Shown piece after piece: positions 48,001 through 63,000 of a stretch of DNA of 64,000 bases. Made by a program: the position numbers. Location: the NCBI RefSeq assembly GCF_045037415.1, contig NZ_CP173440.1; one strand, 5' to 3'. Each line of letters opens with the position of its first letter. Position 1 is the stretch's first letter. Origin of the DNA: Escherichia coli. GTDB lineage: Bacteria > Pseudomonadota > Gammaproteobacteria > Enterobacterales > Enterobacteriaceae.

Positions 48001-51000
48001 TCAGGTGTGATAATGGCGAAAAACTGCGTGTAACGTTCGCACTGGACTGCTGCGATCGTGAAGCCCTGCACTGGGCGGCCAGTACCGGTGGATATGACAG
48101 CGAAACCGTGCAGGACGTCATGCTGGGTGCGGTGGAACGACGCTTCGGCAGCAGCCTGCCAGCATCCCCAGTAGAATGGCTGACAGACAACGTTCAGCTT
48201 ATCGTTCTCATCAGACGCGTCAGTTCGCCAGAATGGTAGGACTGGAGCCTAAACATACGGCGGTACGCAGCCCGGAAAGCAACGGGATGGCAGAGAGCTT
48301 CGTCAAAACGATGAAGCGCGATTACATCAGCATCATGTCGAAGCCCGACGGGTTAACAGCGGTAAAGAACCTTGCGGAGGCCTTCGAACATTATAACGAA
48401 TGGCATCCGCATAGTGCGCTGGGATATCGTTCGCCACGGGAATATCTGCGGCGGCGTACCAGTAATGGGTTAAGTGATAAAAAGTGTATGGAAATATAGG
48501 GGCCAATCCAGATAGCTTGATACGTTTCTCGTTATACCAGCGTATGTACCTGTCCAGGAAGCAGATAAATTTTTCCAGCGTGATACCAGCCCAGTTTCTG
48601 CCATAGAACATTTCGTTTTTGATACGCCCGAAGAAGCCTTCACACGCAGCATTATCCGACGAGCATCCTTTGCGCGACATGGACCTTATAAGTCCGGATG
48701 TGTTGATACGATCGAGCCAGCCCGGCCACCGGTAATGGCCACCACGATCGCTGTGTATTACCGGTTTATCATGTTCGTTGAGCGTATCGAGTGCTTCATA
48801 GAGCATCGTATTCACCAGCGTCGCGTCCGGGCGTGTTCCTATCGACCAGCTTACAACCTAGCCATCAAAGCAGTCGATAACCGGCGACAATCAGCTCGTA
48901 TTCTTCTGCAAGTTGCTTATCCAGTTGCCCCTGACTGTGAGCCTGAAATGCGTGAGCTATTTGCCCGTTGATATGCCGAATCAGTGGTGACAGATCGGGA
49001 AACACATACTGGACTGGTGAAAGCCTAGGAACAGGAAGAGGTCGCTCATTTTGTAAACAGGGAATCAATATTCCCGTTGATGTTGATTAAGCCACTGAGC
49101 TACCGAGCTGGCAAAGTAAGTCAATATGCCGTCTGCCCCGGCGCGTTTGAAGCATATAAGTGACTCAAGCACCGTTTGCTCTTCGTCGAGCCAGCCATGC
49201 CGGAACGCGGCCATATGCATCGCATACTCACCGGAAACCTGGTAGGCAAAAACGGGTACTGCAAAAGTTTTCCTAGCTTCCCTGATAATATCCAGATATG
49301 GCATGCCCGGCTTAACCATCACCATGTCTGCCCCCTCCTGCAAATCCTGGGCAATTTCATGCAACGCTTCCATCGCATTTGCCGGGTCCATCTGATAGTT
49401 TTTTTTGTCCCGTTTGCCCAGCGCCATGGCAGATTGAGTGGCTTCGCGAAAAGGACCGTAATAGTTTGACGCGTATTTCGCTGAATATGCCATGATCTGA
49501 ATAGTCAGCAGGCCATTCGTTTCAAATGCCTGTCTGATATGTCCGATGCGGCCATCCATCATGTCGCTTGGCGCGACAATATCTGCACCCGCTTCAGCGT
49601 GCGTAAGCGCCTGTCTGGTGAGAATTTCTTTTGTCGGCTCATTAAGCACATATCCATGTTCGTCAATGATGCCGTCCTGACCATGTGACGTATAGGCGTC
49701 AAGCGCAACGTCAGTTATCACCCCGAGTTCAGGAAAAGCCTTTTTCAGCGCCCTTACAGTTCGCGGTACTAAACCGGATGGATCCCACGAAGCGTCTGCC
49801 ATCAGCGATTTAGCAGAACTTTCTATACACGGAAACAGTGCAATAGCAGGTATACCTGCCTGAACAAATTGCGCGGCATCATGAAGCAACATATCAACCG
49901 ACAGGCGAAACACACCCGGCATCGACGGCACTTCCTGCCGCAGGTTTTGCCCCTCAATAATGAATACAGGTAAAATCAGGTCGTTTACGGTCAGCTGATT
50001 TTCAGCGACCAGACGGCGACTGAAAGAATGGGTACGAGAGCGACGCAGTCGTCGCGCCGGGAAAGAACCAGGAATAATAATACTCACAAAATGTACCTTT
50101 TCTTCTGCGTTCTCAGGGAGAAGTTAAGCCTGAGCAAAATAAATACGTGGCTAGCGACAGAATTCCAGTGGCAGGCCGTACTTCTGCTGTATGGTGTGCC
50201 CATTCCAGATAACGTGGCCATTTACCAGCGTCATATCAACCGCACCGCCTGACAAAATCCGGCCTTCAAAGGGAGACCATCCGCATTTGTATGCCACATC
50301 CTCCCGGATTATCTGTTGATGACTGAACGGATCGATAACCACCAGGTCCGCCCAATAGCCTTCCCTGATATAGCCGCGATCTTTGAGCTGGAAGCGCTCG
50401 GCTACAGCATGGCTGGTCTTTCTCACCACCATTTCCGGGGTAAAAATCCCCCTGCTGCACATATCCAGCAGTGCAGGAAGAGCATGCTGCACCAGCGGTA
50501 AGCCGGAAGGCGCAGCAAAATAGTCACTCTGCTTTTCCTCCAGTAAATGCGGCGCATGGTCAGTTGCGATAACGTCGATAATGCCTTCATTAACGCCTTT
50601 CCAGAGGGCTTCCTGATGAAACGAGGTTTTTACGGATGGGTTACATTTGAGCTTATGCCCCAGCGTTTCATAATCGTCATAATTAAAAAACAGGTGATGA
50701 ACGCAGGCTTCAGCCGTGATGGTTTTCTGGCGCAGCGCCTCCAGCGTGGGGGCTGCATCAAAGAGAACAAGTTCGTCTGCGGTGGTAATGTGCAGAACAT
50801 GTAATCGGGTACGATGTTTTTTCGCCAGAGAGACGGCCTGGCGGGAGGATGTCAGGCAGGCGTCCACAGAACGAATAGCGGCATGCTCGCCAGGAGGAAT
50901 AGCATCCCCAAAACGAGCCCGCCATATCGCCTCATTTTGCTTTATTGTCGGGGTATGCTCGCAATGTGTTGCCACAAGACAAGGGGCATTAGCGAAAATA

Positions 51001-60000: not shown

Positions 60001-63000
60001 AAACGCGATCCGCTGGATTTTGTTCTCTGGAAGCGGGCAAAACCCGGCGAGCCCGTCTGGCCATCACCCTGGGGTGAAGGGAGACCTGGCTGGCATATTG
60101 AATGTTCCGCAATGAACTGCCATTACCTTGGTACCCATTTCGACATTCATGGCGGTGGTTCTGACCTGATATTTCCCCATCATGAAAATGAGATTGCCCA
60201 ATCCACCTCCGCCAATGATGGCCCTTACGTAAATTACTGGCTTCACACCGGCATGGTGACGGTGAATAAAGAGAAGATGTCGAAATCGCTGAATAACTTT
60301 TTTACCCTGCGCGATATTCTGAATCGGTTCGATGCCCAGAGTGTGCGCTTCTTCCTGCTAAGCGCACATTATCGTAAGCCGCTGAATTATAGCGAGGAGA
60401 ATATTCACCTCGCGCGCGCCTCGCTGACACGGCTCTACACCGCATGCCAGTTCGCTGACGGGTCTCGATCTGAACAGCACGATGCATGGCGGGCCAGATT
60501 CTGTGAGGCAATGGATGATGATTTCAATACACCCCAGGCGCTTGCCATTTTATTTGAACTGACAAGAGAGATTAACAGGCTTTGCGGAACGAATGATGAT
60601 GAAGCCGCAGCACTTGCCACCACGCTGAAAGACCTGGGGAATGTGCTGGGTTTGCTTGAACAATCAGCGGATGCCTTTTTGAAAAACCGCAGTGATCTTC
60701 ATCCTGCAGAACTGCAACTTATTGAAAAGTTAATTCACCAACGCAGTGAGGCACGACGTATGGGCAAGTGGGACAAGGCCGATCGTTTAAGAAATGAATT
60801 AGCGGAGCAAGGCATTGATCTTGAAGATGTCGGCGAAAATACCTCATGGCGTATCCGATAAGTTGTCCCTCTGGATGTAAAAAATTTCAATATCAATTGT
60901 TATGTTATAACGTAATGCAAAGGGTAATTTTATGAACCAACCACGCGAAGTCGTTATTGTCGGTGCGGGTCCGGCCGGGGTGGGTATGGCGGCGCTTCTT
61001 CGTCGTAGTGCCATACAGGATATCCTGGTCGTTGACAGTCACGAAGTAGGTGCCTCCTTTATGCGCTGGCCGGAAGAAACCCGTTTTATTACTCCTTCTT
61101 TTTTTTCCAATCCGTTTGGACAACCAGACCTGAACTCTGTGACCCCTGACAGTTCATTGGCGCTTTTCTGCGGTGAAGAACATCCTGGGGGGAAAACTTA
61201 TGCCAGTTACCTTAAGGCCGTACTGGATGAGTATCAGATACCCGTCATGGCTCCCGCCAGGATTGCAAAGGTTGCGTTGCTCAGTTCCGGTAATTTTATA
61301 CTGATAACAGAAGCAGGAGAGAAGCTGGAAACACGCTCTTTAATATGGGCTACAGGCGAATTCCAGTTCCCAGACCGGCAGATTTTTCCTGGAGCAGATA
61401 TTTGTTGCCATTACGGTGATGTGACCAGCTGGAAGGATTTCAGGAAAGGTGAATACATTGTTATAGGCGGCTATGAAAGCGCGGTGGATGCCGCTGTAAA
61501 CCTGCTGGAAAATGGCTCATCGGTAAAAATGTTAACCCGCTCAGCCCCTTGGTCAACTAACCACATCAGCGATCCCAGTCTATCGCTTTCCCCTTATACC
61601 CGTGAGCGTTTGAACAGAGTGATGAATCACCGTCTTTTCGAAATTTATGAAGATGCGGATGTCTGTGAAGTAATCAGAATGCCCGGCCCGGGAAGTTCGT
61701 ACAAAGTCCATACCACAAACGGACGCGCCTGGGCTACTGACGAGGTGCCTGTGCTTGCTACCGGCTTCCAGTGTGGCGGAGGAGCAAGGCAACTGGCTGC
61801 TTTTTTTGAATGGAATGATGATGGCTATCCGGTCTTAACGGACGAAGACTGCTCAACCCTTTTTCCTGGTTTGTACCTTGTCGGCCCTCATGTGCGGCAT
61901 GCCGGTAATATTTATTGCTTTATCTATAAGTTCCGTCAGCGCTTTCCCGTCGTGGCAGAAAGTATCACGCGTCATCTGGGCCTGTCCTCTGAAGGAGTAC
62001 GGGACTGGTGGGTTCTGCCTTCAGAGCCTGACTGCTGTGCCGATGAGGACTGTGCGTGCTGAGGTCCGTGTTTATGCAATCATTCGTTTTAATGGGATTA
62101 GAAAGTGCAGGAAAATCTACCCTGTTTAATATCCTGACGGAAAGTGCTGCCAGTGATGAGCGTAATTTCAGGGGATCGACCGTTGTATGTCGGGAAGGTC
62201 TCATTAATGATGCAGGGATCTGCCTGGTTGATACGCCAGGCATACGTTTTCAGAGCGACAGTGAAACCACAAAACTCGCCCTTGATGCGCTAAATCAGCA
62301 TGATGGCATTCTGGTGGTTCTGCGGGCCACGCACGCTCAGCAGGAGTGGCAAACGCTCTGTCACCTCATACCGCCACAGGCAAAACACGTTGTTATACTC
62401 CTGACCTTTGCTGATAAGATCAGAAAGGGCCTTCTGGAAGTGACTGAATACCTGAGTGAAACATCAGGTGCGCCGGTACTGGCAGTCAATGCCCGGGAAG
62501 CTGGCAGCAATGTTCGCCAGGGAATAGTGCAGTTGCTGTTGCAGGATAAACCTGCACCCTCCGCTGTCTCTTTACCCCGTCAAAAGATACCGGTAATTAA
62601 TCTGCTGGCTGAATTTCCTCAACAAACGATATTTGAACATCGTTGGTGTGGAAAAGTTGCTGCAATAGTATGCCTTTTCCTGCTGTTTGCCGTTCCGGTA
62701 TGGGGGGCATGGCTGCTGTCAGATTTTATTCAGCCTGTCATTGACAGTGCGGTTATTCAGCCGCTTAAGAATATAACGACGAGCTGGCCCGACGTTCTGA
62801 AGACACTATTTGTCGGCAATTACGGTCTTTTTAGTCTGGGACTTTATTCGTTTGTATGGGCATTTCCTGTGGTGGTACTGATAGGGTTGTCTCTTTCGCT
62901 GACTGACGACAGTGGACTTAAGGAAAGAATTACAGCGACGCTGGATCCCTGGTTGAGAAAACTCGGCCTCAGCGGTCAGGACCTTATTCCTGTATTAAGC

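Follow-up and report, generated by a model that had tools for sequence, protein, structure and literature searches.

In a 64,000-nucleotide stretch of Escherichia coli contig NZ_CP173440.1 (RefSeq assembly GCF_045037415.1), hereafter called the window, the region between positions 49065 and 60861 had been flagged as a Zur-type zinc-sparing island with a Zur box upstream of dksA2. Our analysis indicates that this region is likely the zinc-starvation (“zinc-sparing”) island of the pLVPK-type Klebsiella pneumoniae virulence plasmids, present here as a mobile and partly eroded copy, bounded by insertion sequences (IS), of a larger enterobacterial genomic island with predicted zinc-responsive Fur-family control. 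Every sequence-level and comparative test that was run agrees with reading the region as a cluster of zinc-sparing or back-up paralogs, acquired horizontally and placed under Fur-family (Zur-type) control. Two operator classes are found at four promoter regions and are supported both statistically and phylogenetically. The first, with the gamma-type core GTTAT-N3-ATAAC, precedes the dksA2-folE2-cam-queD-like operon and an oxidoreductase/FeoB-like gene pair. The second, GCAAy-N3-rTTGC, occurs in tandem before the thrS′-M14-pyrC2-hemB2 operon and once in the region between two divergent genes, one for a COG0523-like GTPase and one for a Fur-family regulator that we call Fur#1, with cysS2 downstream of the latter. 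The gene content of the island matches that of Zur regulons elsewhere. From these sequence features we infer which protein binds which box, that zinc is the signal and whatever benefit the host bacterium may draw. The operators, none of which is assigned a strand, are as follows.

57604 to 57626: gamma-type Zur box GAAACGTTATAACATAACATTAA, 27 to 49 nt before the dksA2 ATG, with a score of 25.4 that none of 100 shuffles reached.
60894 to 60916: second gamma-type Zur box CAATTGTTATGTTATAACGTAAT, 16 to 38 nt before the oxidoreductase ATG, with a score of 22.4 that was likewise reached in none of the 100 shuffles.
53372 to 53384: beta-type Zur-like operator 1, GCAACTATGTTGC, an exact palindrome 33 to 45 nt upstream of the thrS′ start.
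53403 to 53415: beta-type Zur-like operator 2, GCAACCTTGTTGC, an exact palindrome 31 bp from operator 1.
58879 to 58891: beta-type Zur-like operator 3, GCAATCAAGTTGC, with one mismatch, in the divergent COG0523-like/Fur-family promoter region.

Gamma-type boxes, which are 23-bp palindromes of the type GAAATGTTATAWTATAACATTTC, were scored with a position weight matrix (PWM) built from 38 published gamma-proteobacterial sites in Additional file 5 of Haas et al. (2009, BMC Genomics 10:470, PMC2770081), with the two pLVPK sites excluded. The training sites have a median score of 24.1, and 100 Markov shuffles of the window served as the null (mean maximum 10.5, 95th percentile 14.3, largest 21.6). 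Such a scan had been proposed as a check on the original prediction, and it confirmed the strong match claimed at 57603 to 57627, since the box before dksA2 exceeds the shuffle maximum and is the top match in the 64 kb. The gamma-type box at 60894 to 60916 and the three GCAAy-N3-rTTGC boxes had been missed. The gamma-type boxes keep their positions even in islands where the identity of the regulator is no more than 56 to 84%. That of dksA2 is conserved upstream of the gene in islands L001, L003/4, L008, L009 and L093, and that of the oxidoreductase is kept at the same place in L001, L003/4, L007 and L008.

Other matches to the matrix are at chance level. Weaker AT-rich candidates that had been put forward at 53456 to 53560 score at most 5.7, within shuffle noise, and are rejected as Zur boxes; they lie inside a 448-bp segment without a counterpart in the intact island. 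Matches of 9.8 at 56147 to 56169, in the folE2/cam overlap, and of 10.4 at 39893 to 39915 are likewise at chance level. Past the end of the window, gamma-type boxes lie between hisI2-zigA and a divergent second Fur-family regulator gene (L002, 32991 to 35297). A further gamma-type box with a score of 22.5 (L002, 38811 to 38833) is found beyond the window before a cluster of ABC, MFS and substrate-binding-protein transporter genes.

No gamma-type box precedes the thrS′-M14-pyrC2-hemB2 operon in the PWM scan. The Zur-type wiring proposed for the island is borne out by the box before dksA2 but is incomplete, since this operon carries a different, beta-proteobacterial-type operator that is linked to the regulator of the island itself. 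Operators 1 and 2 are exact copies of GCAAC-N3-GTTGC, for which 0.04 exact matches are expected per window, and two such matches occurred in none of the 100 shuffles. With its flanks, operator 2 reads TTAACGCAACCTTGTTGCATTAA and can be compared with the published beta-proteobacterial sites aAAATGCAACATTGTTGCATTat and gAAATGCAACAAgGTTGCATTTa; the boxes with flanks, TTAACGCAAC-N3-GTTGCATTAA, belong to the type of Zur box that has been predicted in Methylobacillus, Cupriavidus and Ralstonia (PMC2770081). Degenerate matches in the window number three, all of them within ~526 bp of island promoter DNA. When the pattern GCAACNNNGTTGC was counted over the whole window with one mismatch allowed, 3 matches were found against 2.5 expected, which is no enrichment. 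The GCAAC signal consists of exact copies, their location and their conservation.

This conservation is seen at both GCAAC promoter regions. Operator 1 is conserved in six divergent islands, and thrS2 is preceded by one or two GCAAC boxes in five lineages (alignment A2). Operator 3 lies in the 97-bp region between the COG0523-like and Fur-family genes. In alignment A1, which covers this region in six islands and shows poor conservation elsewhere, it stands out as the invariant block GCAA..TTGC.ATAATA, and its offset (−98 to −65) is unchanged in the genomes of eight enterobacterial species. The boxes also accompany the regulator gene next to operator 3.

58945 to 59397, plus strand: Fur-family regulator Fur#1, 150 aa (PF01475, 41 bits against a threshold of 23.1).

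Homologs of this regulator were retrieved together with their surrounding DNA from K. variicola (56% identity), Erwiniaceae, Pantoea, two metagenomic islands, Methylocucumis (38%), Brachymonas and a Burkholderia-like contig. GCAAC boxes co-occur with relatives of Fur#1 at nine other loci, and in every enteric island a box is located 54 to 68 nt before the regulator start. The Erwiniaceae island, in which only this regulator is present, has GCAAC boxes before folE2-cam and before thrS2-pyrC2-hemB2 and lacks a gamma-type box. At the Methylocucumis locus, two boxes precede an adjoining gene of the “all3515 family Zur-repressed” type. The Brachymonas and Burkholderia-like relatives carry GCAAC boxes as well, those of the latter standing before a TonB-dependent receptor gene and near cam/thrS2/pyrC2.

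A scan of species genomes with the conserved peptides of the regulator yielded 80 loci, in which exact GCAAY-N3-RTTGC matches were counted.

Enteric loci: a match in 8 of 8, with 11 matches against 0.18 expected.
Close beta-proteobacterial (Burkholderiales-type) loci: a match in 7 of 10, with 8 matches against 0.23 expected.
Methylocucumis locus: an exact match in 1 of 1.
Distant loci (Nitrosomonas, Rhodocyclaceae, Pedobacter, Sphingobacterium, Mucilaginibacter): a match in 34 of 61, with 51 matches against 1.45 expected.

The enrichment in species genomes is 35- to 60-fold over expectation, and many of the matches lie 40 to 90 nt before the regulator gene. Across Pedobacter, Sphingobacterium, Mucilaginibacter, Nitrosomonas, Rhodocyclaceae and Sulfuritalea (L032 to L092), the sequence TGCAAy-N3-rTTGCA tracks Fur-family genes that share the helix DRVTLYRIL. 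These data suggest a broad pairing of this helix with TGCAAy-N3-rTTGCA.

Each of the two Fur-family proteins of the island has its own type of box in its own promoter region, and we propose that Fur#1 is the cognate of the GCAAC boxes. Fur#1 has the structural zinc site of the family, with CxxC...CxxC formed by C97, C100, C141 and C144, which are invariant in alignment A4. Its closest non-enteric relatives among the matches listed are Burkholderiales Fur-family proteins of 38 to 44% identity; no named Cupriavidus or Ralstonia protein is among those matches. The second regulator (NZ_CP072809.1, 104589 to 105089) resembles E. coli Zur more, with the recognition helix TTVYRTLDYL compared with PTVYRALDFL in the E. 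coli protein. Although we stop just short of calling it probable, a Burkholderiales/Bacteroidetes-type Fur-family repressor with the helix DRVTLYRIL may constitute an orthogonal regulatory layer, one that would read TGCAAy-N3-rTTGCA and control thrS′-M14-pyrC2-hemB2, its own gene together with cysS2, and the SxSS GTPase, while the other operons would use host Zur via the gamma-type boxes. If true, such a layer would give a mobile element a two-threshold response to zinc starvation, and the island, carried as it is on a hypervirulence plasmid, could help its bearer resist calprotectin-mediated withholding of zinc. The element would then have imported a metal-sparing toolkit along with a private regulator that acts at an operator which host Zur would not be expected to bind, and this wiring would bear on the transplantation of regulons between bacterial classes.

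The window comes from a K. pneumoniae hybrid virulence plasmid. Its 12-kb island region matches phvKpST395_NDM1_1657 of K. pneumoniae (NZ_CP072809.1), a conjugative plasmid of the IncFIB/IncHI1B/IncR hybrid type, at 100% identity, and the match extends over at least 18 kb. Related copies with 98 to 100% identity are found on 692 plasmids, 657 of these from Klebsiella, and also in E. coli transconjugants carrying “pVir” plasmids; the 657 Klebsiella plasmids that bear the island are closely related among themselves. Located on the plasmid that defines hypervirulent K. pneumoniae, the island now travels on hybrid carbapenemase plasmids. A longer version (L001) is located in the chromosome of some E. 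coli, beside a tyrosine recombinase/integrase gene. Its extra content comprises aztABCD, four genes of a metal ABC transporter, a thrS of full length, and a module of hisI2-zigA and the second Fur-family regulator. This module is present on the plasmid too, directly past the window end. The remainder of the window is conjugation backbone and an IS cluster that truncates the left end of the island, where the intact E. coli island runs on leftwards and includes aztABCD.

Identity to L001 is mosaic over window positions 49048 to 64000, being 87 to 91% to the left of a break and ~99% to its right. Synonymous divergence (dS) is 0.16 to 0.54 from hemB2 to thrS′; from the DUF1460 gene to the FeoB-like gene identity is ~99%, with dS of 0 to 0.01 from folE2 on. 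This mosaic divergence indicates recombination between island variants. Two features of the plasmid copy stand apart from L001.

53424 to 53871, no strand: the 448-bp segment that holds the AT-rich candidates, delimited by BLAST of the window against L001.
52338 to 53339, minus strand: thrS′, an in-frame deletion remnant of a ThrRS paralog (Pfam TGS, partial tRNA-synt_2b, HGTP_anticodon).

The unrelated 448 bp replace 3.7 kb of the E. coli island (L001, 13325 to 17019) that contain a gamma-type box, four ABC-transporter genes and the 5′ end of the DUF1460 gene, and the plasmid DUF1460 gene is left without a recognisable box. The thrS′ gene had been described as “thrS-like”; comparison with the 652-aa full-length copy of the E. 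coli and K. variicola islands shows that it is a remnant. An in-frame 951-bp deletion (L001, 12050 to 13000) removes residues 83 to 399 and fuses the TGS domain to the C-terminal half of the core and the anticodon-binding domain. Because of this deletion, thrS′ lacks the editing domain, motifs 1 and 2 and two of the three zinc ligands (MNCPG, motif 2 and DDAHIF are among the parts removed), leaving the histidine of MLHRA, so that neither a complete class II core nor the Cys/His/His ligand set is present. In the classical pLVPK-type plasmid L093 (CP052304.1), cysS2 is broken into open reading frames (ORFs) of 333 and 107 aa (10599 to 12130), whereas it is intact in the lineage of the window. 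All operators are identical in the two lineages.

Several observations weigh against zinc-responsive, Zur-type control of a useful island. Fur#1 scores 31.6 bits against the E. coli Zur equivalog model NF008646, which has a cut-off of 167, and the second regulator, at 84.8 bits, falls below this cut-off too. The sensing site of E. coli Zur is formed by H77, C88, H96 and E111; the aligned positions read Q, F/R and A (alignment A8, in which identity is only 23%), and H77, C88 and H96 are seen in neither Fur#1 nor the second regulator. Because the Zur cut-off is missed and the E. coli sensing ligands are unaligned, the predicted zinc specificity of the regulators derives from context alone, and we class Fur#1 as a Fur-family protein that is Zur-like solely through its context. 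A sigma-70 consensus scan returned 19 sites compared with 19.3 expected, none of them at the gamma-type boxes, and the promoter and terminator scan is at chance level overall. One sigma-70 candidate for the COG0523-like gene, TTGAAT-16-TATTAT (58920 to 58893), abuts the box at 58879 to 58891. Because the scan is at chance level, overlap of the boxes with promoters is not established. Several of the “paralogs” retain metal ligands, and thrS′, as encoded, cannot be an active synthetase. Some parts of the island may no longer be under selection on plasmids, since cysS2 is disrupted in the classical plasmid and the ABC importer has been lost. Finally, our literature search found no experimental work on the island beyond Haas et al. 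2009 and one line in Jordan et al. 2022.

These signs of decay raise the alternative that the island on the virulence plasmid is eroding hitch-hiker cargo of little or no present benefit, whatever its regulation. The internal deletion in thrS′, the disappearance of the metal ABC transporter along with its box, the disruption of cysS2 in the classical pLVPK-type plasmid, the truncation of the left end by IS elements and the missing aztABCD would all be expected of such cargo. We nevertheless consider this explanation unlikely, given that at least 11 ORFs are full length, that the ratio of nonsynonymous to synonymous divergence (dN/dS) is 0.04 to 0.15 wherever divergence permits an estimate, as for purifying selection, that every operator is undamaged and the same in the two plasmid lineages examined, and that the island is retained on hundreds of plasmids, though closely related ones.

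A second alternative concerns the signal. Fur#1 could sense Fe, Mn, Co, Ni or peroxide rather than zinc, in which case the thrS′-M14-pyrC2-hemB2 and COG0523-like/cysS2 units would answer a stress other than that of the dksA2 unit. Fur#1 lacks the His-rich stretch that usually precedes the first CxxC and reads AAVGLFECDNCHH there, the sensing residues of both E. coli Zur and Bacillus subtilis PerR are unaligned in it, and its similarity to the PerR, Fur and Zur structures in the PDB is equally weak. However, the targets of Fur#1 are classic Zur-regulon paralogs, its operator equals the predicted beta-proteobacterial Zur boxes, a distant relative adjoins a “Zur-repressed” family gene behind the same boxes, and the Burkholderia-like relative has its boxes at a TonB-dependent receptor gene and near cam/thrS2/pyrC2, all of which makes a non-zinc signal decidedly improbable. 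There is very little to recommend a model in which host chromosomal Zur acts alone through gamma-type boxes, with the GCAAC palindromes inert or serving an unrelated factor and thrS′-hemB2 constitutive or silent, because, even though only gamma-type sites have been published for pLVPK (PMC2770081) and Fur#1 is a poor match to Zur models, the GCAAC boxes are exact copies in tandem, lie close to promoters and form conserved footprints, they track Fur#1 relatives across Enterobacterales, Methylocucumis, Burkholderiales, Nitrosomonas, Rhodocyclaceae and Bacteroidetes (51 against 1.45 in the distant set), and they replace gamma-type boxes before folE2-cam where only a Fur#1-type regulator is present.

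Under the favored reading, with two operator classes and zinc as the signal, zinc-loaded Fur-family repressors would sit on the palindromic operators at the island promoters when zinc is sufficient, and the operons would be derepressed when zinc falls, for example through host calprotectin. The products would then include proteins predicted to avoid or relax the need for zinc, namely Mg-type HemB2, finger-less DksA2, FolE2, the Cam-type carbonic anhydrase and PyrC2, as well as duplicates of zinc enzymes (CysRS2), G3E GTPases and what may be an uptake module, made up of the oxidoreductase and the FeoB-like protein. The gamma-type boxes would be read by host Zur, by the more Zur-like second island regulator, or by both. 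The GCAAC boxes would be read by Fur#1, presumably autoregulated and a member of a Fur-family subgroup of Burkholderiales and beyond. By analogy with the cobW1 operon of Cupriavidus metallidurans, the tandem boxes before thrS′ might allow tighter repression.

All of the genes named in the original prediction are present, on the strands claimed. The statement that zinc-independent paralogs form two operons fits hemB2, dksA2, folE2, the gamma-class carbonic anhydrase (gamma-CA) gene and pyrC2 as described, but not all members are zinc-independent. Metal ligands are kept in the M14-like protein, in gamma-CA and in the C-terminal half of the queD-like protein, for which zinc independence is not demonstrable. 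The genes of these operons and their neighbors are listed below.

49065 to 50087, minus strand: hemB2, Mg-type (Cys-less) porphobilinogen synthase (NF006762, 495 bits).
50151 to 51497, minus strand: pyrC2, type-I dihydroorotase paralog (NF006688, 685 bits).
51494 to 52345, minus strand: M14-like metallopeptidase of the 3B2Y family, HGEE motif kept (PDB matches).
53769 to 54593, plus strand: DUF1460/AmiA-like (N-acetylmuramoyl-L-alanine amidase-like) protein with a signal peptide (PF07313, 287.9 bits).
54610 to 55476, minus strand: queD-like tandem T-fold protein (PTPS/QueD superfamily), 288 aa (weak family matches).
55606 to 56166, minus strand: gamma-CA, Cam/CcmM-like, His triad kept (PDB 3KWC and Cam 1QRG-type entries, ~E 1e-25).
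56156 to 57091, minus strand: folE2, GTP cyclohydrolase IB (NF010200, 299.8 bits against a cut-off of 215; PF02649, 225 bits).
57155 to 57577, minus strand: dksA2, DksA paralog lacking the C4 zinc finger (best PDB match 4IJJ, P. aeruginosa DksA2, E 1.6e-31).
59479 to 60861, plus strand: cysS2, full CysRS paralog (TIGR00435, 568 bits).

The HemB2 protein was correctly called Cys-less. Its best PDB match is the Pseudomonas aeruginosa Mg enzyme 1B4K, in alignment with which the Cys-less motif corresponds to DVALDPFTTHGQDG, and the Asp-rich DxALDx(Y/F)x3G(H/Q)DG of Mg-type enzymes stands in place of the Cys-rich motif; dN/dS relative to the E. coli island copy is 0.08. In DksA2, described in the same way, the finger is indeed lost (CRDT...SIEA compared with CESC...CIDC in E. 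coli), but one of the four finger cysteines is retained. The first His of the HxH motif of PyrC2 is changed to Gln (DDQVHF compared with DAHVHF in 7UOF) with the remaining ligand positions intact. The nearest structure to this protein, the Porphyromonas gingivalis enzyme 2GWN, has the same change, and dN/dS is 0.15. The motifs NIQDGVVIH and IAHRAIVHG of gamma-CA align with those of 3KWC and Cam 1QRG-type entries.

Other members are less clear-cut. The M14-like protein, annotated at 283 aa, matches PDB entries 3B2Y, 3IEH and 2QVP with E values of 1e-67 to 1e-73, 3B2Y representing a structural-genomics family, and scores 294 bits against a Shewanella-type N-acetylornithine deacetylase model with a cut-off of 400. 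From the name of that family alone, it is speculation that this protein stands in for the zinc/cobalt enzyme ArgE. The queD-like gene appears in public records as “isocitrate dehydrogenase”, a mis-annotation, or as “hypothetical”. A phmmer search of the PDB with its product gave no match, and weak matches emerge only with a family profile (Plasmodium PTPS, E 5e-4; QueD2 7V0F, E 0.04); with TIGR03367, which has a cut-off of 89, the product scores 41.7 bits. Its N-terminal half is degenerate, with VGES in place of the HGHN of PTPS and the HGH ligands lost, and it is only in the C-terminal half that an invariant C-x4-HGH (NCQRIAHGH) is found (alignment A5). In the E. coli island, DUF1460 is the final gene of the ABC-transporter operon behind a gamma-type box. 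The zinc-ligand motifs of CysRS2 (MYVCG, HIECS and the third motif) are identical to those of E. coli CysRS 1LI5, in keeping with the original statement that cysS is no zinc-independent paralog, a point already made by Haas et al. 2009. Neither a box nor a terminator was found in the 81-bp gap between Fur#1 and cysS2, and the two are probably co-transcribed.

Three further genes belong to the units controlled by operator 3 and by the second gamma-type box, respectively, in the proposed wiring.

57648 to 58847, minus strand: COG0523-like G3E GTPase, CxCC changed to SISS (PF02492 cobW, 91 bits; PF07683 CobW_C, 60 bits).
60932 to 62062, plus strand: pyridine-nucleotide-disulfide-type FAD oxidoreductase with a Cys-rich C terminus, PDCCADEDCAC (PF13738, 313.9 bits).
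62056 to 63723 (annotated start ~62092), plus strand: FeoB-like protein with an N-terminal GTPase and a Gate (nucleoside-recognition) membrane domain (PF02421 FeoB_N, PF01926, PF07670).

The GTPase gene and the Fur-family gene had been reported as divergent. This is so with respect to each other, but the GTPase gene is co-directional with and upstream of dksA2. The GTPase keeps GFLGAGKTT, ETSG and TKxD and has both a P-loop G-domain and CobW_C. The plain label COG0523 cannot be kept, since the defining CxCC motif reads SISS; because the conserved GCxCC motif is missing, we call the gene at 57648 to 58847 COG0523-like. The GCICC of ZigA aligns to ADSISS (alignment A7), a change that is kept in homologs at 65 to 71% identity. 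In an exhaustive library search the closest clusters (~34 to 60% identity) form a small clade and are all Cys-less at the motif, and a P-loop-anchored motif scan finds CxCC again at ~31%. The protein scores 203 bits against the ZigA model, which has a cut-off of 600, whereas a bona fide ZigA encoded beyond the window scores 702 bits, keeps GCICC and is located with hisI2 behind a gamma-type box. The existence of a Cys-less COG0523-like GTPase calls into question the CxCC zinc site as the basis of action for all members of the family. The FeoB-like protein is short, carries the stretch CSRCTRHAC and scores 118.6 bits against a feoB model with a cut-off of 315. Together with the oxidoreductase, it is a candidate for a new Zur-controlled metal-uptake module that we have not found described.

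The island itself was known. A “Zur-regulated gene cluster” of pLVPK was predicted in 2009 (Haas et al. 2009, Fig. 5 legend), and Additional file 5 of that paper gives the entry “LV190 dksA2-folE2-cam atgATGTTATgTTATAACgTTTt -50” and a second pLVPK site, “LV196 hisI2-yciC”. The published string atgATGTTATgTTATAACgTTTt is found exactly in the classical pLVPK-type plasmid L093; the dksA2 box of the window differs from it in flank bases and has the same 17-nt core. In the same paper, zinc ligands are stated to be missing in the HemB2, DksA2 and PyrC2 paralogs and kept in those of CysRS, ThrRS, QueD, HisI and AmiA, CXCC is required for inclusion in COG0523, and the dksA2 operon is given without a COG0523 gene. 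K. pneumoniae queD2 is mentioned in the context of zinc paralogs in one line of Jordan et al. 2022. The island as flagged is a correct re-discovery of this published prediction. The accessible text of Haas et al. 2009 makes no mention of the GCAAC boxes, of the oxidoreductase/FeoB-like box, of the deletion in thrS or of the Cys-less GTPase. In the searchable literature, four features appear to be unreported: a second class of operator and the private regulator that goes with it, an oxidoreductase/FeoB-like operon behind a Zur box, a COG0523-like GTPase that is Cys-less at its motif, and the pattern of erosion on plasmids.

The pLVPK cluster of Haas et al. 2009 is the same island with the same paralog families, but the published account of it gives two gamma-type sites only, at dksA2 and hisI2-yciC. 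In P. aeruginosa, PA5532 to PA5541 comprise dksA2-COG0523-DUF1826 and amiA2 divergent from folE2-cam-pyrC2 (same source), and dksA2, folE2, gamma-CA, pyrC2, an amidase and G3E GTPases behind GTTAT-N3-ATAAC boxes are common to that cluster and the island. The nearest solved DksA2 and HemB structures are P. aeruginosa proteins. However, the gene order differs, the COG0523 proteins of PA5532 to PA5541 are counted there as CXCC members, and neither a second operator class nor regulators of its own are reported for that cluster. Additional aminoacyl-tRNA synthetase paralogs, hemB2, the M14-like protein and the FeoB-like pair also set the island apart from it.

A parallel to the GCAAC system is the C. 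metallidurans cobW1 operon (Op0317f_1), in which cobW1-folE_IB2-cysS2-queD-cam-pyrC2 are under Zur control and which shares cysS2, folE2, cam, pyrC2 and queD with the island. This operon is reported to have two Zur boxes, and these tandem boxes are said to limit its expression to severe zinc starvation, at zinc concentrations no higher than ~50 nM. The predicted Cupriavidus operator gAAATGCAACAAgGTTGCATTTa is of the same type as the GCAAC boxes of the island (PMC2770081). Control of the cobW1 operon involves one chromosomal Zur, whereas the island places a GCAAC system beside gamma-type boxes in an Enterobacterales mobile element. The Zur regulon of Acinetobacter baumannii (ZigA, QueD2) shares the concept of low-zinc paralogs, and a bona fide ZigA with hisI2 lies just beyond the window. 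However, the GTPase within the window is not ZigA, given its 203 bits and the missing CxCC, and the queD-like protein is only remotely similar to QueD2 7V0F.

An Rfam scan of positions 46000 to 64000 found no riboswitch or small RNA. The left boundary of the island is marked by one further feature.

47227 to 48815, no strand: IS2-like element (tnpB split) and IS3-family transposase fragment (NCBIfam matches).

This boundary is part of an IS cluster at 44769 to 48815, which holds a transposase gene of ISKpn21 (ISNCY), a gene for a DUF6904 protein (46201 to 46845), the IS2-like element and the IS3-family transposase fragment. Within the cluster, tnpB of the IS2-like element is split into two ORFs, and the IS3-family transposase fragment is on the opposite strand.

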